Positions 49,869 through 64,000 of a DNA stretch of 64,000 nucleotides are shown piece by piece. The notes beneath the pieces were generated by a model. The model made no database searches. It was not told where the DNA came from and saw only the letters and a list, made by a program, of their open reading frames with translations. The position numbers were made by a program, and so were the translations under genes. Positions within the stretch are counted from its first letter, which is position 1; each line of letters starts with the position of its first letter. The DNA is from Candidatus Bathyarchaeota archaeon (lineage in GTDB: Archaea > Thermoproteota > Bathyarchaeia > Bathyarchaeales > Bathycorpusculaceae), in assembly GCA_026014485.1 (NCBI GenBank), contig JAOZIE010000008.1:160716-224715 (forward strand), in the 5' to 3' direction.

Positions 49869-50229
49869 CTTGTTCTGTAAGAATCAGGGTATGTCTTGTT
49901 TGGTACTTTATATTTTTCGCAGTGAAAACCTGTTCAAAAGCACTTTTCATACCCCATCGAAGGCATGGAAAAAGTCCATGCTTTTTACAAATCACTTTTC
50001 TGCAGTTGCTTAGTCCTGATTACTTAATGCCGAATTTGCTTTTTGTTGATGGGCGAGAAAATATAAAGTGAGCACTTTGATATGGAGCGCACTTAAAAAT
50101 CTGTTCAAAACTTGAAAAGAGTGCTATTTATTATGCTTTCTTTTCTCGTTCAGCTTGTTTTGTTAAAGCTTAAATGTGCCTTTGTGGTTTAAATCATAAC
50201 ATCACATAAAATATTGCTTTGTGATATGA

Positions 50230-50865
50230 ATGATAAAGTCAAGTATCTTGCTAAAGAAACTTCGAATAGACAAAAAGGAATTCGTAACCGCAGAAGAGCT
50301 CAAGCGCTATTGCAAAGCATTGACCCTGAACTATGAGAAGACAATCAAATACTATGTTTCCAGAGGGTACCTTATCCGAATTTTCAAAGGCATCTTCTAC
50401 GTCAAATCCTTAGACGAAGTCAAGCTTAGCAAAGCTAAACACAACCATCTGGAACTTGTTGCCAAGGGCCTAGAACTTAAAGGCGTTAAGAACTGGTACT
50501 TCGGATTGTACACCGCACTGAAATTTAACAACCTAACGCATGAGAGCTTTGCGGTGGACTATGTTGTTAACGATAAACTGTTAAGGACAAAGCCCATCAA
50601 TGTAGCTGGATACAAGTTCAGATTCCTAAAGCTAGCTCCAAAACTCCTAGACTTTGGCATACTTGAAAATAATCTCAGATATTCAGACCCAGAAAAGACA
50701 ATACTTGACTTCATTTACACTTGGCGATATAACGGCATCCCAAAAGAGAAAATAGTCCTTGACGTTTCAGAATGGGCTAAGGATACATCAAAAGAAAAAA
50801 TCAAAAAGTATGCTGCCAACTATCCAAAAACGGTTCAGGAAATCGCTGACATGGTGATCAGATGA
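50230..50865 (+). CDS. abiEi: AbiEi-family antitoxin/transcriptional regulator (type IV toxin-antitoxin / abortive infection)
   Basis: 211 aa. FVTAEELKRY...YYVSRGYLIRIFKGIFYV resembles the AbiEi N-terminal wHTH motif (G.l.ri.rG.Y). 4-nt ATGA overlap with the downstream nucleotidyltransferase gene. Confidence 0.7.
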   Translation: MIKSSILLKKLRIDKKEFVTAEELKRYCKALTLNYEKTIKYYVSRGYLIRIFKGIFYVKSLDEVKLSKAKHNHLELVAKGLELKGVKNWYFGLYTALKFNNLTHESFAVDYVVNDKLLRTKPINVAGYKFRFLKLAPKLLDFGILENNLRYSDPEKTILDFIYTWRYNGIPKEKIVLDVSEWAKDTSKEKIKKYAANYPKTVQEIADMVIR

Positions 50866-51803
50866 GAGGAGACTTTGTAAACGAAGTAGCTAAACTACAA
50901 AAAGTCAAAAGAGCGGACCTGATAGAAAAAGACTTAATCCTTCACCAAGTGCTCTTTGACCTATCCAAAAATAAGTTCTTCCACGACAATTTTGCTTTCA
51001 AAGGCGGCACCTGCCTAGCTAAATGCTATCTTGATTACTTTAGATTCTCAGAAGACATCGATTTCACATGGAAAGACCAAAGTGTCTTTGACGGGAAATC
51101 GCAGAAAGAGGTTAGAAGGTACCTCTCACAGGTCATCGATAGGATTGGAGAAGTCTTTGAAGAAATCGCTAAAGCACATGAGTTAGACTTCAGTTGTCTA
51201 AAAGACGATCGGAATTATGTTGAGCTGACTGGTGGCGATAAGACTTGTACCTTTAAGTTGTGGTACCAATCCGAAGTTTTAGGACGCAAAAGCTTTCTTA
51301 AGGTTCAACTGAATTTTGTAGAGAAGATATGTTACCCTTTTAAAGGCGCTGAGCTGAAAAGTCTCATAGTCGAAAACCCCGAAGAGCTCATTTTACTGTA
51401 CCCTGAACACGAAGTTTATGCCAAGAAAATAGCGTTTGATGTTTACGATTGCCATGAGATTTTAGCGGAGAAAATCCGAGCAATACTTACCCGACAAGGC
51501 ACAAAAGCAAGAGATTACCTCGATGTATACCTAATTGAAAAACAATTCAGAATCCACTTAGATGACATCTATACCTGCGTATTAAAGAAAACCCAGTTTA
51601 CGCTCAACCTCTATGAAAGATACCGCCAAAACTTAGAGGAGAAAAAGCGAACGCTTTTGTCGACGCCGTTCAACTGGGGTGAAGAGAAAGGACTTCTGCT
51701 AAAAGAAATCGACGAGACGGATTTCTACAAATTTATTGAAAGACTGAAAGCTTTCTTAAAGAAAGTCATAGATAACTTGCCTGAAAGAGAAAAAAGCAGG
51801 TAA
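50862..51803 (+). CDS. abiEii: AbiEii/AbiGii-family nucleotidyltransferase toxin (DUF1814)
   Basis: 313 aa. FAFKGGTCLAKCYLDYFRFSEDIDFTW matches the GGT.L...y..R.SeDiDf core of DUF1814 nucleotidyltransferases. Confidence 0.8.
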   Translation: MRGDFVNEVAKLQKVKRADLIEKDLILHQVLFDLSKNKFFHDNFAFKGGTCLAKCYLDYFRFSEDIDFTWKDQSVFDGKSQKEVRRYLSQVIDRIGEVFEEIAKAHELDFSCLKDDRNYVELTGGDKTCTFKLWYQSEVLGRKSFLKVQLNFVEKICYPFKGAELKSLIVENPEELILLYPEHEVYAKKIAFDVYDCHEILAEKIRAILTRQGTKARDYLDVYLIEKQFRIHLDDIYTCVLKKTQFTLNLYERYRQNLEEKKRTLLSTPFNWGEEKGLLLKEIDETDFYKFIERLKAFLKKVIDNLPEREKSR

Positions 51804-51943
51804 GCTTTTCTGTTGTTGGATTTTGAGCAAAAAGTAGCCAACCAAGAAATACACATATACTCTCTACTTGCGGGTAACTGCCGAAAAATAAGAAAGCATT
51901 ATTTTTAACAACCCGTAATATTTGCATGTGAGCCAAAACTTAA

Positions 51944-52517
51944 CTTAAATTTCATGGGCCATTTCACATTATTAACGGTCAAGAAGAAAATCTTCTGCTA
52001 TCTCCACTTGGCGAATTAAAAGGCGTTTATGTTTGGGCCATTCCCTTTCAAAACAAATACTTGTCATATTATGTGGGTGAAACAGGTAAATCATTTGTTT
52101 ACCGCACTATGGAACACGTCAAGTGTTATTTGAATGGCTTTTATCGAATCTATAACCCTGAAGAGTTTGCTATGGGCAAGAAGAAGCTGGTCTGGGGTGG
52201 AATGTGGAAAACCGACAGAAAAAGCCCAAAAATAATGATAGAATACTTACAACTACCAGCAGTTATCAGCTCTTGCATATGCATTTCTAACGCAATTTCG
52301 AGTTTTCTTAGTTCCACTTGATAATGATAACCAAAGACTTCGACAAAGAATAGAAGCTGCAATTGCTCAAGACTTACTTCAACAGGATGGGATTATAGGC
52401 AGCTTTCAAGATAACGACATAAGATATTATCTTAGGCGACAGAGCGAACCGCCAATCAAAATAAAGCTAAACGGGTATGAACAGTTACTTGGACTAAACT
52501 GCGAACTAACCATATAA
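51944..52517 (+). pseudogene. Decayed GIY-YIG nuclease-family gene (at least two frameshifts, no in-frame start)
   Basis: The middle frame encodes LKGVYVWAIPFQNKYLSYYVGETGKSFVYRTMEH (GIY...YVG...R..EH). The N-terminus (ATG 51954, MGHFTLLTVKKK...) and the C-terminus (...FRVFLVPLDNDNQRLRQRIEAAIAQDL...ELTI*) lie together in a different frame. The shifts fall near A-runs at about 51981-51990 and between 52241 and 52319. Confidence 0.6.
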
Positions 52518-52557
52518 CCGGTACAGCAACAGAATTAGTGTTTTTTTCCTTCGTCTT

Positions 52558-53079
52558 TCATTTGTGGTTGTTAGGTTCAAATTCTACTTTTCCAGTTGTA
52601 GTTATTCTGGCTACTTTCCAGTCATAGCTACCCTTTGATACCGCTGTTTTAATAGAACCAATGACTGTGTGCGTCTGTGGAGTTGTGGGTTTAGCAAGAA
52701 AAGTTACACTTTTCACTTGCTTTTCTTGGTTTAGACCATCGAAGACCACAAAGTCCACAGGGTCCATAATCGCTTTTATGTCATAGGGGTCGTACTCCAA
52801 CTCCTTGAATTCTGGGCACAAGCAGTTTTTGACCATCAGCGGAACCTTGTTTCTGCCACGCTCGATTGCTGTCTCACGCATTTCTGCTTCCTTAGCTTGA
52901 AATACTTGCTCTTTATCCTGCAACGTAAGAAGCTTCAATTCGTATTTGTCTAGCCAAGTTTTAGGTGATTTGCCTGAGTATTTCAGGTGCAAATCGCTCA
53001 TCCGCACGATTTCTCCGCAGCAGGGACAAACGCAAAGAATCCGCCTAAACGACTGAAAAGCATCTAACAACTTCTTCAT
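52558..53079 (-). CDS. Cys-cluster + coiled-coil + Holliday-junction-resolvase-related endonuclease-like domain protein; paralogue B, catalytic E-x-K replaced by L-A-K
   Basis: 173 aa. CVCPCCGEIVRMSDLHLKY; charged helix QDKEQVFQAKEAEMRETAIERGRNK; DPYDIKAIMDPVDFVVFDGL...VKSVTFLAKP. The ATG overlaps the stop of the upstream paralogue (TAATG). Confidence 0.65.
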   Translation of the reverse strand: MKKLLDAFQSFRRILCVCPCCGEIVRMSDLHLKYSGKSPKTWLDKYELKLLTLQDKEQVFQAKEAEMRETAIERGRNKVPLMVKNCLCPEFKELEYDPYDIKAIMDPVDFVVFDGLNQEKQVKSVTFLAKPTTPQTHTVIGSIKTAVSKGSYDWKVARITTTGKVEFEPNNHK

Positions 53080-53558
53080 TAGAGAATCCTCACGTCAACC
53101 TTGTTATCTGCGATGGCGTCGCGGATAAGCCGCTGATGCTTATTCAGGTCTGAATTTCCCGATTTAATTTCAAGAAAGGTTATGTGATCAACTTCTCTGT
53201 TTAGCAAACCGTTGAACACTATGATGTCAATTGGATCGAATAGTGGTCTGCATTCTGCAAACTGCAGATTGAGGTCCTTGTAAGCTGGAATGAATCGTTC
53301 TATGATTTTGCCAAACCCAATTTCGATCGCCTTCTTTTCAGAAGTCACGTCTGCAGATAACTTTCTTTTCTCCAGATCCTTTGTGCGTTCGGCAAGTTCA
53401 CGCATAAGCTTAAGCTTGGCGAATATGGCCTCTTTGGGAAAATTCTTTGTGCCGTCAAAGAGCATAGAATCAGAGAGGTTGAATTCATTATCGCATTTTG
53501 GACATTGAGCTAATAATTTCGAGTTCTTTAGATTTTCAATGAATAAACCCAAATCCAA
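53079..53558 (-). CDS. CxxC motif + coiled-coil + Holliday-junction-resolvase-related PD-(D/E)xK endonuclease-like protein; paralogue A, motif intact
   Basis: 159 aa. TTG start with AGGT upstream. CPKCDNEFNLSDSMLFDG; charged helix; LFDPIDIIVFNGL...VDHITFLEIKSGNSDLNKHQRLIRDAI, matching the D...(D)...E-x-K layout I recall for the Endonuc_Holl/COG4741 family. Confidence 0.65.
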   Translation of the reverse strand: MDLGLFIENLKNSKLLAQCPKCDNEFNLSDSMLFDGTKNFPKEAIFAKLKLMRELAERTKDLEKRKLSADVTSEKKAIEIGFGKIIERFIPAYKDLNLQFAECRPLFDPIDIIVFNGLLNREVDHITFLEIKSGNSDLNKHQRLIRDAIADNKVDVRIL

Positions 53559-53762
53559 GGTTTGAACCTGAATATTAGGTTCCCACTGATTAAACTTAAA
53601 TGATTTATGAATTCATATTAAGTAAGCAACCATTGTATTTCCGTTTGAGGTCACGGTTTAATTTTATGAAAGCACTGCAAAAAAACAATTATTTGCTAAC
53701 TCTGAAAATGTTAAATACTTATAGAAAATATAAGTAAACTGAAAGCTGGTTGAAAAATTAGG

Positions 53763-55466
53763 ATGCTTGCTTATGAACTTTACTTGAAAAATAAAGAAAA
53801 CACAGAAGAGTTTGTGCCTAAAGTTCCAATTAAGAAAGTGTTCGTTAAGGTTGGCGATAACGTAACTCTTCAACTGGACCAAAAAACCTTAGAACATTAT
53901 GGAGACGACCTGAGCGAAAAAGATCACAATTATTATTTTCAAAAATCTCTCTCCATGCCGTCAAAAAACCTTGCATCAATCGGTCTGCCTTACAGAGGAA
54001 CTGGAACTAACAATAATAACCCATATGTAGAGTTCTTCGGCAAATATGAAAAAGGCGAATTAAAAATCTCCATAAAAGGAAAAAAGAAAATCAGTAAAAA
54101 ACAAAATGAGGCTTATGAATACTCATATAGCTTTGAAAATGATAAAGAATTTGCCGCCGTTCCAGTTGATTTCTTGGTTTTAAGACTTGATAGGAAAAGC
54201 TATTTTTTTGGTGAAAAGCTGCTTTTCGACAGTTACAAAGAAGTCGGAGTCATTAGCGCAGAAGGTGCGTTGCCGTCAAAGGTATTTCTTGCGGTTTGTA
54301 GAGCCTTCTCTTCTTTATGGCAAGAGAAAATAAAGAGTGAAGAACTCAAAGAGTACAGTAGATTCTCATTTCAGATAGTCATCTTGCCGTTTTCACTTCT
54401 GCCAAATGGAAAGATCACCTACCGTAGTGATGAGGCATCCAATTGTTCGGTTAAGGAGTCCGAAGACAGTTTTGGAAACCAGGTAACGGGTTATACAGCA
54501 AAACGTACACAGACGGCAAAATTTTTTTCTTTCAATGATCCAGCTTTTTCTATCAACTGCAGAACCGGCAAAGAGTTCTATCAGAATCTCGATATCGGTG
54601 ATCAAACTGTACGTAAAATTAATTTGTCCGGATTGAAAACGGGTGTAAATTGGTATTTTTATGATGTAAATAACCCGTCATTCCAGTTTGAGAATACACG
54701 TTCAGGTATCTATGACCGGCTTCTCAACAACTATAACCACTTGATAAAACAAGCTGGCGAATTTGCAGCCAAAAAATCCACTATGAAGATTATATTTGTT
54801 AAAAAAACGCAGGCTAAACTTGAAGTACTTCTCGATGAGAATTTGACTTTTGATCAACTGAAACAGATGCTAAGTCGTGCTCAAGATAACTTAGCCCATC
54901 ATCCAATGGCTTTAGAGTCGCTTATAATAAAAAGGAAAAATGACATCGTATGGACTGATTATCTCACTGCAATAAGGCATTTCTTGAATGGCACCTTTGT
55001 TGATCGTACCTTTTTGGTTCAGCGGTTTACCCTTATCCTCTGGGAAAATCTCCGAGAATGGATAAAGGGTAATAAGCCAGACAGCAAAGCAGGGGACTTT
55101 TTTGAAAAATCCCAGTTTTGCTTGAATCTATTAACTAAAACTGAGGGAGGATTAGCTGTGAATAAAAACGAAAAATATGCATACAAGATTGGCTGTATAG
55201 CCGGAAAATACGTGAAATTTAAAAGAGAAAAAGATGAAGCAAACAACTCGACCAAAGACATTCTGACTTATTCTAGATATGATTTGGACCGCCTTAAATG
55301 GGTATATCAGCGGGCATGCAACAGTACCTTGCTTTCTAAAGCCGACTATATCGATTTCAGTCAATCTATAAAAAACGACATACCTGAAGATGAAATTGAA
55401 GAAGAAAAAGCACACGAAGACTATTCCTACTTTTTCTACAAAGGCGTCTTCCAAAATCTAACTTAA
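53763..55466 (+). CDS. cas8: Putative Cascade large subunit (Cas8b-like), highly divergent
   Basis: 567-aa ORF directly upstream of cas7-cas5-cas3, of the size and position expected for a type I large subunit. I recognise no sequence motif. Confidence 0.55.
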   Translation: MLAYELYLKNKENTEEFVPKVPIKKVFVKVGDNVTLQLDQKTLEHYGDDLSEKDHNYYFQKSLSMPSKNLASIGLPYRGTGTNNNNPYVEFFGKYEKGELKISIKGKKKISKKQNEAYEYSYSFENDKEFAAVPVDFLVLRLDRKSYFFGEKLLFDSYKEVGVISAEGALPSKVFLAVCRAFSSLWQEKIKSEELKEYSRFSFQIVILPFSLLPNGKITYRSDEASNCSVKESEDSFGNQVTGYTAKRTQTAKFFSFNDPAFSINCRTGKEFYQNLDIGDQTVRKINLSGLKTGVNWYFYDVNNPSFQFENTRSGIYDRLLNNYNHLIKQAGEFAAKKSTMKIIFVKKTQAKLEVLLDENLTFDQLKQMLSRAQDNLAHHPMALESLIIKRKNDIVWTDYLTAIRHFLNGTFVDRTFLVQRFTLILWENLREWIKGNKPDSKAGDFFEKSQFCLNLLTKTEGGLAVNKNEKYAYKIGCIAGKYVKFKREKDEANNSTKDILTYSRYDLDRLKWVYQRACNSTLLSKADYIDFSQSIKNDIPEDEIEEEKAHEDYSYFFYKGVFQNLT

Positions 55467-55476
55467 GGTGACAAAC

Positions 55477-56505
55477 ATGACTGAAAATCAAAAAACTGGA
55501 TTAAAAAATCTAAAAAAAGAACTGCTCTTCTACTATGAATCTAGACAGAATCCGAACGGCGACCCAGGCTTTGAAAACCAGCCGCGCCAAATGCCTGATG
55601 GCACAATAATAGTTACTGACGTGCGGATTAAGCGAACAATCCGTGACTACGCAAAAAGCAAGTACGACAATACCACCTTGTTTGTCGATTTGGGAGAAAA
55701 TGGCAAACCTGTAATGGCTGATGACAGGGCTGAAGAAATTATCGGCTCACTTAGCGGTGACGCTATAAAAAGTTTGGCAATCAAAACGTTTGATGTTCCT
55801 CTGTTCGGCGCTCTAGTTACTATTAGAAAGGGTAAAGATAAGAAAGGAAAGGACAAGGACAGTGGCTCTCAAAAGTTAACTGGACCCGTTCAGTTTGCTA
55901 TAGGCCGAAGCGTTAATCAAGTGCAAATTTTGAACCCCCAAATTACGGGAAGGTTTGTGGGCAAAGAAAAAAAGAGCGCATTACAAGATGACGACCAGAA
56001 ACAAGAGCAGTTTGGCAGTATTGGAAAGTTCTATGCGGTGGATTATGCTTTGATTAAGATACAGGGCGCCGTGAACCCCGCTAACCTTGGGGAATACCTC
56101 GAAGACGCCGCCGTCGTGGAGAGTTTTAAGAAAGCAGAGAACAAACTGTTCAATTGCCTTTGGGAGGGAACCAACGCCTTAATTACTCGGTCCAAGTTCC
56201 CGCAGAGAAGCATATTCCTCTTGGAGGTAACCTATGATTCTTCAATCTACAATGACCTGCCAGTTCTGGTTGAAGAAGATCAGGCGCTTAAAGGCCGAGC
56301 CAACGGCTTAACAGATTCCCCGCTAAAGTTCACCAAGTTGCTTGAAGCACTCAAAACCCGCGAGGGAAAAGTCAAAAAAGTGCGGCTGGCATCCTGCAGA
56401 GAACTGCTCAAAGATACGCAAAAGCTCAAAGCCGACATAGAAGCCCTTAGAATTCCAGTTGAATTAGTACCGACTGAAGAGCCTTTGGGGGTGGCAGCGA
56501 GTTGA
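55477..56505 (+). CDS. cas7: CRISPR-associated Cas7 (Csh2/Csd2-like backbone subunit)
   Basis: ATG 55477 with AGGTGA 5 nt upstream. ESRQNPNGDPGFENQPRQMPDGTIIVTDVRIKRTIRDY is the signature N-terminal block of Csh2/Csd2-type Cas7. Confidence 0.85.
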   Translation: MTENQKTGLKNLKKELLFYYESRQNPNGDPGFENQPRQMPDGTIIVTDVRIKRTIRDYAKSKYDNTTLFVDLGENGKPVMADDRAEEIIGSLSGDAIKSLAIKTFDVPLFGALVTIRKGKDKKGKDKDSGSQKLTGPVQFAIGRSVNQVQILNPQITGRFVGKEKKSALQDDDQKQEQFGSIGKFYAVDYALIKIQGAVNPANLGEYLEDAAVVESFKKAENKLFNCLWEGTNALITRSKFPQRSIFLLEVTYDSSIYNDLPVLVEEDQALKGRANGLTDSPLKFTKLLEALKTREGKVKKVRLASCRELLKDTQKLKADIEALRIPVELVPTEEPLGVAAS

Positions 56506-62085: not shown

Positions 62086-62222
62086 AGGCGCTACGTTGAT
62101 GGGCAACACGGAATGGGTGTACTCTTATAAACGATTTAATAAGCAGCCGACAATAAGATTGCTGCAAGAAATCGCCAAAAATCAACGCTCTAGAAGTCAA
62201 ACAGACCCCGAAAAAGTGGCTG
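62086..62222 (+). promoter_or_regulatory. Putative CRISPR leader
   Basis: 137-nt non-coding stretch between the cas4 stop and the first repeat. Repeat polarity (3' ATTGAAAC) places the leader on this side. Confidence 0.5.
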
Positions 62223-64000
62223 TCCAAAAAGGTAATCCAACACAACAAGGATTGAAACTTTCTTCCTCTCTTGGATCAGGTTTATTATCAATGTCCAAAA
62301 AGGTAATCCAACACAACAAGGATTGAAACTTATTACTTGGTTCGGAAAGTTTATTGACGCTATAAGTCCAAAAAGGTAATCCAACACAACAAGGATTGAA
62401 ACACTTGACTGCTTTGGCGTATTCTCCGAGTACTGAAGGTCCAAAAAGGTAATCCAACACAACAAGGATTGAAACATTTTTGTAGATTCCCCTTGGAACT
62501 TGGGCAATTTGAGTCCAAAAAGGTAATCCAACACAACAAGGATTGAAACATGTCTGGCTACTCCAAGACATCCACTTCTTTCGGGTCCAAAAAGGTAATC
62601 CAACACAACAAGGATTGAAACTCCATTGACGCTTAAGGGTTCGTGTATCTATGTAGAATGTCCAAAAAGGTAATCCAACACAACAAGGATTGAAACTGGC
62701 GGTCACGACCCAGATGGCAACGTGCAGAGTAGGTCCAAAAAGGTAATCCAACACAACAAGGATTGAAACGGCTCGAATTCTGGCAATTCCACAAGTGCCT
62801 TAAAGCGTCCAAAAAGGTAATCCAACACAACAAGGATTGAAACTCGGCGAACACAAGAGAAAATACCGAGTTTCAGCAGTCCAAAAAGGTAATCCAACAC
62901 AACAAGGATTGAAACCCCGGTGAACTAAGCAATTTACCAATTGTCTGACGCAGTCCAAAAAGGTAATCCAACACAACAAGGATTGAAACAATCTGTGGCT
63001 GCTTCCTATCATCTGTACTTTGTGTGTCCAAAAAGGTAATCCAACACAACAAGGATTGAAACACTTGACTGCTTTGGCGTATTCTCCGAGTACTGAAGGT
63101 CCAAAAAGGTAATCCAACACAACAAGGATTGAAACTCCTGCTCAGAAGGAGTGGTAACAGCCTCCCAAAGTCGTCCAAAAAGGTAATCCAACACAACAAG
63201 GATTGAAACTTATTCATTTGTTGATTCTTCTCCTTTGATTCGGTTGTCCAAAAAGGTAATCCAACACAACAAGGATTGAAACTATGCCTCCAACGTCAGG
63301 TAGAGTTCCGTTAGCGCAGGTCCAAAAAGGTAATCCAACACAACAAGGATTGAAACAAGCCGTCCTCCGAATCGAGCAGTTGGTCTTTCGGCGTCCAAAA
63401 AGGTAATCCAACACAACAAGGATTGAAACAGGCTTCGCGGTCAACCTTAAACCCGTATTCCTCGCATGTCCAAAAAGGTAATCCAACACAACAAGGATTG
63501 AAACACCTTAAATCAGCGAAGCCGACGCATCTCTCATTTGACGTCCAAAAAGGTAATCCAACACAACAAGGATTGAAACCTTTACTCTAGGCAAATTAGA
63601 AGAGGGGCAAAAAGTGTCCAAAAAGGTAATCCAACACAACAAGGATTGAAACTCCGTCACATTCCACTGATACGACACCACATCACCTGTCCAAAAAGGT
63701 AATCCAACACAACAAGGATTGAAACAAGTACCCAGCTAACTTGAAGAAACTCTTAACTTCGTCCAAAAAGGTAATCCAACACAACAAGGATTGAAACATG
63801 ATGGCCTCTACAAATTCTAAACTCTCGGATGCTCGTCCAAAAAGGTAATCCAACACAACAAGGATTGAAACTTGTTAGGGTTCCAACAATAATCGTCAAA
63901 TAAACGAGTCCAAAAAGGTAATCCAACACAACAAGGATTGAAACTTCTGCTAAGTCTGCAAAAATGGGCGTAATGGAAACCGTCCAAAAAGGTAATCCAA
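62223..64000 (+). CRISPR. CRISPR array, 37-nt repeat GTCCAAAAAGGTAATCCAACACAACAAGGATTGAAAC; 24 complete repeats + a 25th cut by the window end; 24 spacers of 34-38 nt
   Basis: Repeat starts read directly: 62223, 62294, 62366, 62439, 62513, 62585, 62660, 62733, 62807, 62879, 62953, 63026, 63099, 63173, 63246, 63320, 63393, 63468, 63543, 63616, 63689, 63761, 63835, 63908, 63982. All complete copies look identical by eye. The 3' end ATTGAAAC is the classical 8-nt crRNA handle. Confidence 0.98.

Follow-up and report, generated by a model that had tools for sequence, protein, structure and literature searches.

A conserved pair of intact and degenerate PF10107 nuclease paralogues beside a type I-B cas operon in a Bathyarchaeota archaeon: a candidate genetic-conflict module

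This locus raises the question of what two small adjacent genes, lying divergent from a cas8b1 gene, encode, and whether they serve the neighbouring CRISPR-Cas system or act on their own. The window, which is the whole stretch of 64,000 nucleotides analysed here, comes from a metagenome-assembled genome of a Bathyarchaeota archaeon. The two genes, called A and B in the following, and the region that separates them from cas8b1 have these features:

53079 to 53558, minus strand: gene A, 159 aa with a TTG start; CxxC, long helix and minimal PD-(D/E)xK nuclease (PF10107), from the ORF list, the sequence and Pfam
53298-53300 (E87), 53226-53228 (D111), 53169-53171 (E130) and 53163-53165 (K132), minus strand: the predicted catalytic set of A, complete
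53493 to 53504, minus strand: CPKC (C19-C22) of A, a lone CxxC resembling a zinc knuckle, placed in the turn of a predicted beta-hairpin
52558 to 53079, minus strand: gene B, 173 aa with an ATG start; paralogue with the architecture of A and a degenerate active site
52753-52755 (D109, kept) and 52693-52695 (A129, replacing the Glu of ExK), minus strand: active-site positions of B, where K84/N85 replace the first Glu
53077 to 53081, minus strand: TAATG overlap of the A stop and the B start with one shared base, read ctcTAATGaag
53559 to 53762, no strand: AT-rich intergenic region of 204 bp between A and the divergent cas8b1, which starts at 53763

The ORF list and the sequence agree on two adjacent minus-strand genes of 159 and 173 aa that overlap as TAATG, as the original prediction had described them. 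Every motif then quoted as shared is found in the two proteins, that is, the N-terminal motifs of A and B (CPKCDNEFNLSDSMLF and CPCCGEIVRMSDLHLKY) and the C-terminal motifs DPIDIIVFNGL / ITFLEIKSG in A and DPVDFVVFDGL / VTFLAKPTT in B. Protein A is 100% identical to the NCBI entry 'hypothetical protein NWF05_04895 [Candidatus Bathyarchaeota archaeon]', and C103 is its sole further conserved Cys besides C19 and C22. The N-terminus of B is rich in Cys (C16, C18, C20, C21; H31), two further Cys follow (C86/C88), and its C-terminus carries a conserved extension, YDWKVARIT..GKV. The 204-bp divergent region shared with cas8 was also found as described, and A and cas8b1 presumably both have their promoters in it; from reading of the sequence, the TTG start of A is preceded by a candidate TATA-like TTTAAG at a distance of about 40 nt and by an AGGT at about 10 nt.

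Both proteins match PF10107 (Endonuc_Holl/COG4741), A with 72 bits (E=6.6e-20) and B with 56.3 bits (E=4.5e-15), well above the Pfam gathering cut-off of 23.8, and all homologues carry the precomputed assignment to this family. The two proteins are detectably alike in BLASTP (E=2e-8, 25% identity), and comparison of the profiles of their orthologues by hhalign gave 98.2% probability and E=5e-14 over 141 columns, the CxxC N-terminus included. From these comparisons, A and B are full-length paralogues with a likeness far above chance, in line with their earlier description as Hjc-related paralogues. The family motif, E-(V/I)D-E(V/I)K on a minimal alpha-beta-beta-beta-alpha core, has been described computationally (PMC1189080), and it is carried by A. 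A search of the literature on PF10107/COG4741 returned no experiment on any member and no solved structure. Direct similarity to Hjc was not detected, as a Pfam scan at E<=1 lists PF10107 alone for the nuclease region; neither sequence nor profile searches with A and B gave a nuclease relative among PDB chains, NCBIfam and PHROGs gave no match for either protein, and a Pfam match to Rad50_zn_hook was insignificant (E=0.94).

The catalytic motif of the family is present in A and absent from B. The E-D-ExK motif of the family is retained by almost all of some 115 diverse representatives, a set of 75 diverse family representatives shows no variation at C19 and C22, and in 94 orthologues of A the residues C19, C22, E87, C103, I110-D111 and E130-I131-K132 are all invariant. 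In contrast, none of 106 orthologues of B has an acidic residue at the position of the ExK Glu, where S, T, A or N is found instead; the first-Glu position is K, R or N, and the Asp (D109) is kept. This answers the objection that the missing Glu might be an artefact of alignment, since its loss is clade-wide. The view of B as catalytically dead thus stands for the Bathyarchaeial B clade and cannot be extended to its distant relatives, which have Asp at the ExK position (LLD-R/K/Q), lack the Lys two residues on and retain two Asp, although this conclusion is based mainly on the alignment consensus and the reading of (D/E)xK by regular expression is crude. The distant B proteins might be active. 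There are also B-like proteins whose motifs are intact, among them P0336 and P0341.

Structure prediction adds little to the fold assignment. The AlphaFold2 monomer models, built from the 94- and 106-sequence alignments, are weak, with pLDDT 49 for A and pLDDT 72 and pTM 0.41 for B; their order of secondary structure, a helix followed by three strands and a helix, is compatible with a PD-(D/E)xK fold. Searched with Foldseek, the weak model of B matched nothing in the PDB at E<1 and gave one borderline match in BFVD (E=8.9e-4), a viral 'Holliday junction resolvase-related' protein. The structural check of the fold that had been proposed earlier was therefore not successful, and because the models are weak and the PDB gave no match, the assignment rests on the profile matches.

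The sequences and the same weak models suggest that both N-termini consist of an amphipathic helix and a CxxC hairpin, with no classical transmembrane (TM) or leader helix. This differs from the classical members of PF10107, which are single genes with an N-terminal TM helix; the TM-type proteins of loci L027 and L028 are without CxxC. In A and B the helix and the CxxC hairpin replace the TM helix, a duplication has turned the single gene into a fixed A/B operon, and the motif has been lost from B. Two analogies may be drawn for the Cys residues. As in the zinc hook of Rad50, one CxxC lies beside a long helix in each protein, and two such halves could share one metal. Alternatively, as in the staple of Cas4 and AddB, the N-terminal Cys pair together with a Cys of the core (C103 in A, C86/C88 in B) could fasten the N-terminus onto the core of the nuclease.

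Whether the pair is peculiar to this island can be judged from its homologues. A metagenome scan for relatives was run with a 14-sequence alignment (A4). Of 115 loci, 99 have A followed by B, adjacent and on the same strand, overlapping or abutting, and 11 more are interrupted by contig ends; the loci that lack B and have room for it are just two TM-type singletons and one pseudogene. The commonest spacings between A and B are -4 (43 loci), -1 (12 loci) and 0 to +4 (15 loci), and related loci show a 4-nt overlap equivalent to the TAATG, so that both the pairing and the stop/start overlap are conserved. The operon is found in Bathyarchaeia, Actinomycetota, Bacteroidota and viruses, including a bacterial-type branch with only about 33% identity to A. 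The two genes have also evolved together: the Mantel correlation between them is r=0.95, a value reached by 0 of 999 permutations, with r = 0.80 and 0.90 within clades, and B is conserved as well as A, with mean pairwise identities of 0.47 and 0.49, respectively. The pair is thus an old, widespread two-gene module of archaea, bacteria and viruses and not a local oddity, and where PF10107 occurs in its soluble CxxC form, an intact and a degenerate paralogue are almost always joined in one fixed operon.

The position of the pair next to a type I-B system had suggested a CRISPR-linked accessory nuclease, acting for instance in spacer acquisition or interference. The genes for Cas8b1 (PADLOC E=9e-129), Cas7b, Cas5, Cas3, Cas6b, Cas1 and Cas4 lie downstream, and the window holds a CRISPR array with a 37-bp repeat. 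In favour of such a role, 204 bp separate the pair from the divergent cas8b1, and csa1-cas1-cas2-cas4 lie within about 3 kb of it at two other Bathyarchaeial loci. However, when 114 loci (56 of them of at least 8 kb) were searched by tblastn with the Cas1 of the window, cas1 was found in L001/L015 and L013/L014 alone, two independent loci besides the window, each from a close relative. Nor is there a Cas family among the 25 commonest Pfam/PADLOC families in the neighbours of 15 distant loci, or a cas gene in ten other annotated contexts, and the arrangement of the cas operon in the window is unlike that at the two other loci. As the adjacency to cas genes is limited to the closest relatives, an accessory role in CRISPR-Cas is not supported and we consider it extremely improbable.

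The surroundings of the pair differ from locus to locus, and defence genes abound in them. In the window, GC drops to 0.33-0.43 over positions 50000-55500, which together with the confirmed cas genes bears out the AT-rich island reported next to the cas operon, and AbiEi/AbiEii lie upstream. For the neighbour called a decayed GIY-YIG gene, the motif GVYVW..(x11)..YYVGETGKSFVYRTMEH was seen and no profile matched. Recognised defence genes occur within 8-10 kb of the pair in 11 of 13 distinct annotated neighbourhoods, taken as a raw count. Besides the AbiE and type I-B cas genes of the window, they comprise the cas adaptation modules of two other neighbourhoods and, in one neighbourhood each, McrBC with Mrr, Dam with SacI and NmeDI, Dnd-associated/SNF2/Schlafen genes, a methyltransferase with SNF2 and NOV_C, DUF4365/PLD/Schlafen genes, a MmeI-type restriction-modification system and an AbiA-like reverse transcriptase; SIR2 and HerA lie beside the pair in Terrimonas alba. 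A Pfam/PADLOC census of 88 neighbours of the 15 distant loci adds Gabija, GmrSD, OLD, DRT and WYL. In these counts the setting among defence genes recurs; for a defence function itself this evidence is circumstantial. Variable genome regions are also abundant in mobile elements.

In all-against-all clustering of 1150 neighbour ORFs no constant third gene was found. The lack of a conserved neighbourhood bears on another explanation, in which the pair is a housekeeping nuclease for DNA repair or recombination in Bathyarchaeia. The pair is Hjc-related, and some loci adjoin genes for NurA-HerA-Mre11-Rad50, XPB-Bax1 or AlkZ-like proteins, as might be expected of a repair enzyme. On the other hand, its occurrence is patchy, with clade-specific patterns (9 matches, all in Bathyarchaeia, among 185,579 species genomes), decayed copies exist, and in the window it sits in a low-GC island. 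Close relatives across bacteria and viruses point to horizontal transfer. A housekeeping function therefore appears very unlikely.

In archaea and bacteria the pair recurs in islands that vary and are rich in defence genes, and viruses carry it too, which makes genetic conflict its most likely role, and as it usually stands among anti-virus defence genes it is a candidate for a new immune module. The reading that we prefer, with a probability of roughly one half, is that A and B form an obligate nuclease complex with one active site that serves as an autonomous conflict or defence module. In this model A, as a member of the Hjc-related PF10107 family, would be a metal-dependent PD-(D/E)xK endonuclease with E87, D111, E130 and K132 as its site, and B would retain fold, CxxC knuckle and long helix, having lost in this clade both the catalytic Glu and the first Glu. 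The two would be subunits of one small module, inherited and transferred as a unit. Coupled translation would supply them in equal amounts for a common hetero-oligomer, the simplest form of which would be an A/B heterodimer that imitates the homodimeric Hjc-type enzymes, with the long helices and the Cys/Zn elements holding it together. This dimer would have one catalytic centre, and B would be its non-catalytic partner, with a DNA-binding or regulatory part. The pair may then be a stand-alone nuclease of innate immunity or of competition between elements that acts on foreign or branched DNA by nicking or cleaving it. The anatomy of the genes, their paralogy and family membership, the conserved residues, the pairing and co-evolution and the neighbourhoods are observed; the complex, the binding of metal and zinc, the substrate and the defence role we infer from sequence and context. 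Support for the complex comes from the conserved stop/start overlap and from the strict co-occurrence of the two genes. Against a defence module, there is no obvious discriminator of self and non-self, so that a control step, as yet unexplained, is needed, and the viral setting described below suits a role in DNA processing equally well.

A catalytic subunit combined with a paralogue that lacks the catalytic residues is familiar from XPF-ERCC1, Mus81-Eme1 and the alpha/beta tRNA-splicing endonuclease of Crenarchaeota. In XPF-ERCC1-type pairs the inactive paralogue keeps the fold and serves structure or substrate binding. At the level of sequence A and B follow the same principle, with paralogy, loss of residues in B and equal conservation of the two. 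The known pairs differ in belonging to other folds or families (ERCC4; splicing endonuclease) and in being housekeeping enzymes, whereas A and B are accessory and mobile, and their heterodimer is a proposal. Small size and a catalytic E/D...D...ExK arrangement are shared by A with the PD-(D/E)xK resolvases of the Hjc, RecU and T7 endonuclease I type. These resolvases act as homodimers. Hjc has two active sites and makes paired cuts, whereas an A/B dimer would have one site; it is also without the CxxC element and the long helix, and is a core gene, unlike the island genes A and B.

These differences bear directly on the possibility that the pair processes the DNA of mobile elements, as a heteromeric resolvase of branched DNA or Holliday junctions in replication, recombination or genome maturation, the chromosomal copies being marks of integrated or decayed elements with no part in host defence. 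The family is Hjc-related, and the sole structural match of the B model was the resolvase-related viral protein mentioned above. Two virus-like contigs (IMG/VR) carry the pair within replication and nucleotide-metabolism modules, beside genes for ribonucleotide reductase, DNA methyltransferases and DNA polymerase, and upstream of the pair in one Bathyarchaeial locus lie a transposase and genes for PolB, a Rad51-like protein and a PDDEXK protein. Relatives of the nuclease domain are also found on conjugative plasmids of Sulfolobus and Acidianus and in one Acinetobacter phage. Still, only 5 family loci occur in 2.9 million viral contigs, two of them TM-type singletons, and neither A nor B matches a PHROG. 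An origin of the CxxC-type pair from plasmids or phages was considered and rejected: tblastn with P0282 did not find the pair in 50,697 phage (INPHARED) and 72,556 plasmid (PLSDB) records, and gave partial nuclease-domain matches alone, to TM-type or plasmid Hjc-like genes. Most chromosomal contexts contain defence genes without integrases or structural genes. Moreover, the one intact site in the A/B composition would speak against symmetric resolution of a four-way junction, as a single active site per dimer should be incapable of the paired cuts that resolve it. Taken together, we regard a resolvase of mobile elements as unlikely; were it true, the pair would still represent a new heteromeric form of Hjc-like enzyme.

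The small bicistronic operon also resembles type II toxin-antitoxin systems. Here A would be a toxic nuclease acting as a homodimer and the dead paralogue B would poison it by forming inactive heterodimers, so that loss or degradation of B upon infection, or upon loss of the element, would free A and lead to abortive infection or addiction. The overlapping genes always occur together, among toxin-antitoxin and Abi genes (AbiE, VapBC, ParE); B is without catalytic residues and yet strongly conserved, and their common architecture implies that the two proteins dimerise by way of homologous surfaces. Of the two genes, however, the upstream one would encode the toxin, which is atypical of type II systems, and Pfam, NCBIfam and PADLOC reveal no recognisable DNA-binding or antitoxin domain in B. 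In locus L112 the B gene is truncated and A is apparently intact, which should not be tolerable if A were lethal, and in locus L022 the opposite is seen, A being truncated and B intact. To our knowledge, paralogous toxin and antitoxin pairs are no described class. On balance a toxin-antitoxin mechanism seems quite improbable.

Returning to the single-site A/B complex as a defence module, it may be compared with Shedu/SduA, GmrSD, McrBC and Gabija, which occupy defence islands, as the pair appears to do, show a patchy distribution with horizontal spread, and have nuclease effectors of the PD-(D/E)xK or a similar type; several stand-alone nuclease defence systems directly adjoin the pair. In contrast to these systems, the pair consists of just two proteins of about 165 aa, neither of which contains a domain of the ATPase, helicase or sensor type. 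The statement that no described system has this composition has held, as PADLOC, NCBIfam, PHROGs, the PDB sequences and the literature give none: the 5027 models of PADLOC-DB v2.0.0 gave no match to A or B at E<=1, and a search of the literature on defence and Holliday junction resolvases returned no described system of two such paralogues. We know of no named system that this composition would fit.

It is tempting to speculate, although we hold it to be rather doubtful, that the pair is a two-gene system of innate immunity, old and widespread in archaea and bacteria and borrowed by viruses, in which a Zn-linked heterodimer both detects and cuts the DNA of invaders, such as branched intermediates of replication or recombination, with no ATPase, methyltransferase or signalling partner. 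If the innate-immune reading is true, the pair would be among the smallest self-contained nuclease defence modules. As a defence system it would be a very compact nuclease module of archaea and bacteria that current annotation tools have missed, and a prokaryotic case of the active/inactive-paralogue nuclease design of XPF-ERCC1 and Mus81-Eme1. Since 2005, PF10107/COG4741 has been known from computation alone. The setting of the operon spans restriction-modification, McrBC, Gabija, SIR2-HerA, AbiE, retron/DRT-type and CRISPR-Cas genes, and with orthologues in bacteria, among them the pair of Terrimonas alba, the idea is directly testable. Other genes recur beside the pair as well, namely those for MBL/RMMBL proteins, a GHKL-like MPN635_N protein, ERCC4 with a Zn-ribbon, and TPR proteins, each in a few independent contexts.

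The coordinates of the pair, read from the ORF table and the sequence, are as follows:

53079..53558, minus strand, gene A, 159 aa, TTG start
52558..53079, minus strand, gene B, 173 aa, ATG start

In the TAATG overlap the stop codon of A and the start codon of B have one base in common. The TTG of A is the first start codon past an in-frame TAA, and is supported by orthologues of the same length and with the same N-terminus. All motifs attributed to A and B in the original prediction were found in the sequence, as was the 204 bp separating A from the divergent cas8b. Protein A is 100% identical to the NCBI entry [quoted passage not shown]; hence the window is archaeal and bacterial promoter logic is not applicable.

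PF10107 (Endonuc_Holl/COG4741) is the sole Pfam family above the curated cut-off for A (72 bits, E=6.6e-20) and for B (56.3 bits, E=4.5e-15); A carries the catalytic motif in addition to the profile match, B the profile match. BLASTP aligns A and B at 25% identity (E=2e-8), and the profiles of 94 A orthologues and 106 B orthologues align over 141 columns, including the N-terminal CxxC, with 98.2% probability and E=5e-14. By these comparisons the two are true full-length paralogues, and the proposal of a paralogous, Hjc-related nuclease-family pair is borne out by the family matches and the profile alignment; by sequence, neither protein is Hjc itself. The family has been described as a minimal PD-(D/E)xK core with the motif E-(V/I)D-E(V/I)K, its classical members carrying an N-terminal transmembrane helix (Kosinski et al. 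2005, PMC1189080), and is among the uncharacterised families in Steczkiewicz et al. 2012. It is known from computational work only: the literature search found no experimental study, and neither the literature nor sequence and profile searches of PDB chains yielded a solved structure. A and B differ from classical members in lacking the transmembrane helix, which is replaced by a CxxC hairpin, and in forming a fixed operon in which B is degenerate. No model in PADLOC v2, NCBIfam or PHROG recognises either protein, and the PADLOC v2 result agrees with the earlier view that no matching system had been described.

Residues E87, D111, E130 and K132, together with C19, C22 and C103, are invariant across all 94 A orthologues. 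A scan of 1.84 billion proteins gave 1877 matches at E<=1e-3 and 388 at E<=1e-10, and in some 115 diverse representatives taken from it these residues are nearly universal. In B, the position matching E130 of A is Ser (65), Thr (25), Ala (13) or Asn (3) and acidic in none of the 106 orthologues, and that matching E87 is Lys, Arg or Asn in most of them; the PxD Asp is retained in 102. For the Bathyarchaeial clade this rules out that the "dead paralogue" is an alignment artefact. The description does not hold generally, as distant bacterial-type B proteins keep an Asp at the ExK-Glu position (consensus ..ikni.llDr..k), though without a Lys two residues later. The extent of active-site decay in B varies by lineage, and B is presumably inactive.

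A is directly followed by B in every Bathyarchaeial context retrieved, and at 99 of 115 loci A then B are adjacent on the same strand. At 11 loci the contig end leaves no room for B; where there is room, B is missing only at two singletons of the transmembrane type and at one pseudogene. The spacing is mostly -4 nt (43 loci), -1 nt (12) or 0 to +4 nt (15). Metagenomes were also scanned with a 14-sequence alignment of a distant branch, which is 43-56% identical to the homologue P0282 and about 33% to A of the window. This gave 519 confirmed relatives; among the best 80 loci of the scan, a B-type ORF scoring 100-147 bits on the B profile directly follows the A-type ORF wherever downstream sequence suffices. 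As a module the pair is both conserved and widespread, an Actinomycetota MAG and Terrimonas alba (Bacteroidota) being among its named sources. The identity matrices of A and B correlate with r=0.95 over 75 dereplicated pairs (reached in 0/999 permutations), with r = 0.80 and 0.90 within clades, and mean pairwise identity is 0.47 for B vs 0.49 for A. B is thus conserved to the same degree as A; the two genes are retained and transferred jointly, and B is under purifying selection.

The Bathyarchaeial form occurs, by clade-specific patterns, in only 9 of 185,579 species-representative genomes, and decayed copies were found in other Bathyarchaeia assemblies:

L112, 8480-8760, B cut off after RGRKKVP, A intact
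L022, 9911-10336, A without its N-terminal half, B intact
L023, 9926-10237, frameshifted A fragment alone

The module is accessory, and we regard a housekeeping repair enzyme as very improbable.

The pair is also present on two virus-like IMG/VR contigs, listed here, and two further ones have single genes of the transmembrane type:

L025, 7989-8910, pair; other genes ribonucleotide reductase and DNA methyltransferases
L026, 3329-4539, pair; other genes including DNA polymerase

This placement amid replication genes favours a branch-processing nuclease of mobile elements or viruses, a reading we nevertheless hold to be unlikely. The B proteins of these two contigs have LLDSK or LLDRK and may retain (D)xK.

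The flanks of the pair vary between loci. In the window the pair is flanked by AbiEi/AbiEii and, at its other end, by type I-B cas genes with a CRISPR array:

50230-51803, plus strand, intact type IV TA / abortive infection pair AbiEi/AbiEii, directly upstream of the island (PADLOC E=1e-53 and 1e-60)
about 51990-52320, plus strand, GIY-YIG-like remnant (GVYVWAIPFQNKYLSYYVGETGKSFVYRTMEH) without a proper start and with a broken downstream frame
62222-63944, reaching the end of the window, CRISPR array; its 37-bp repeat is GTCCAAAAAGGTAATCCAACACAACAAGGATTGAAAC, its spacers are about 36-37 bp long

The remnant had been called a decayed GIY-YIG gene; the motif and broken frame are there, Pfam and PADLOC give no match, and the motif is the sole basis for the name. 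Minus-strand ORFs listed at 62190-63217 are spurious, lying inside the array. Elsewhere the neighbours are csa1-cas1-cas2-cas4 and XPB-Bax1; Mrr and McrBC; an AlkZ-like and a ThiF/BilD-like gene; NurA-HerA-Mre11-Rad50, NmeDI, Dam and SacI; Schlafen/AlbA, SNF2, SMC and a dnd-associated gene; MTase, SNF2, NOV_C, VapBC and Fic; DUF4365, PLD, Schlafen and transposase; an MmeI-type R-M system; SIR2 and HerA (Terrimonas); or an AbiA-like reverse transcriptase and PLD. By our count, recognised defence genes are present in 11 of the 13 distinct contexts that were annotated; one more is ambiguous, and only that of the truncated B (L112) has none. Among 88 neighbour ORFs of 15 distant loci were Gabija (GajA + GajB, twice), GmrSD, OLD-TOPRIM, DRT and WYL. 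These counts suggest, in a qualitative way, an enrichment of defence genes around the pair. Clustering of 1150 neighbour ORFs found no constant partner gene.

The suggestion of a CRISPR-linked accessory nuclease fared poorly. In a tblastn search of 114 loci with the window Cas1, cas1 lay near the pair in only two other independent loci, both close relatives, whose cas operon layout differs from that of the window. The position beside cas8b looks like ordinary defence-island clustering and gives no sign of a functional link, and a CRISPR accessory is hardly credible.

AlphaFold2 models of A and B alike show a short helix, a beta-hairpin that turns at the CxxC, a long helix (residues 42-86 in B, mid-part pLDDT >90), three strands and a helix, the last two elements corresponding in the models to the expected minimal nuclease core. 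Overall pLDDT is low (A 49, B 72). Foldseek of the B model against PDB gave no match, and BFVD one borderline match, a viral family member; as structure searches yield little, it is the profile evidence that supports the fold. In each protein a single CxxC is universally conserved. C103 of A sits in the first core strand and Bathyarchaeial B has additional C16, C20, H31 and C86/C88, and a metal site is plausible, either as a staple between core and N-terminal hairpin or as one common to both subunits.

The analysis establishes how A and B are built, that they are paralogues, where the motif is conserved or lost, that the two strictly co-occur and co-evolve, and in which contexts they lie; that they form a complex and bind metal, and what their substrate and protective role would be, is inferred. 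As the most likely reading we give a probability of about 0.5 to an autonomous hetero-oligomeric nuclease acting in genetic conflict. A and B would be made together from one transcript and assemble; A would give the complex its single Mg-dependent PD-(D/E)xK site, and B would serve as a structural, DNA-binding or regulatory subunit without catalysis. We consider a TA-like arrangement, with B as the neutralising partner of A, doubtful. The proposed hetero-oligomer resembles in design the active/inactive paralogue nucleases XPF-ERCC1 and Mus81-Eme1 and the active/inactive paralogues of the crenarchaeal splicing endonuclease, from all of which it differs in fold and in its accessory, mobile setting. 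The nuclease effectors themselves are ordinary; the pair is a well-defined, testable candidate system.

Some further observations concern relatives and surroundings. Two homologous proteins, P0336 and P0341, fit the B profile with a higher score than the A profile although they have the full E...D...ExK set, and may be an active B-like or pre-duplication form. Between 49500 and 55500 of the window, GC falls at about 49,900 from 0.45-0.53 to 0.33-0.43; AbiE, the pair and cas8b all lie within this low-GC stretch, which is consistent with horizontal acquisition. Three direct neighbours recur without being universal, and each may be either an optional partner of the pair or an island gene of its own. 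Upstream of the pair are an ERCC4 and Zn-ribbon nuclease of 314 aa, in five metagenome loci (L050 6999-7940, L061, L065, L093, L098), and a GHKL-like "MPN635_N" protein of 469 aa, in archaeal as well as distant loci (L002 6573-7979, L099, L107). Downstream, two Bathyarchaeial contexts (L002 9021-10421, L011) have an MBL/RMMBL (beta-CASP-like) protein of 467 aa. Upstream of another Bathyarchaeial pair (L109/L110, 1484-5896), a family-B DNA polymerase, a Rad51-like ATPase, a PDDEXK nuclease and a DDE transposase may form a self-replicating integrated element.
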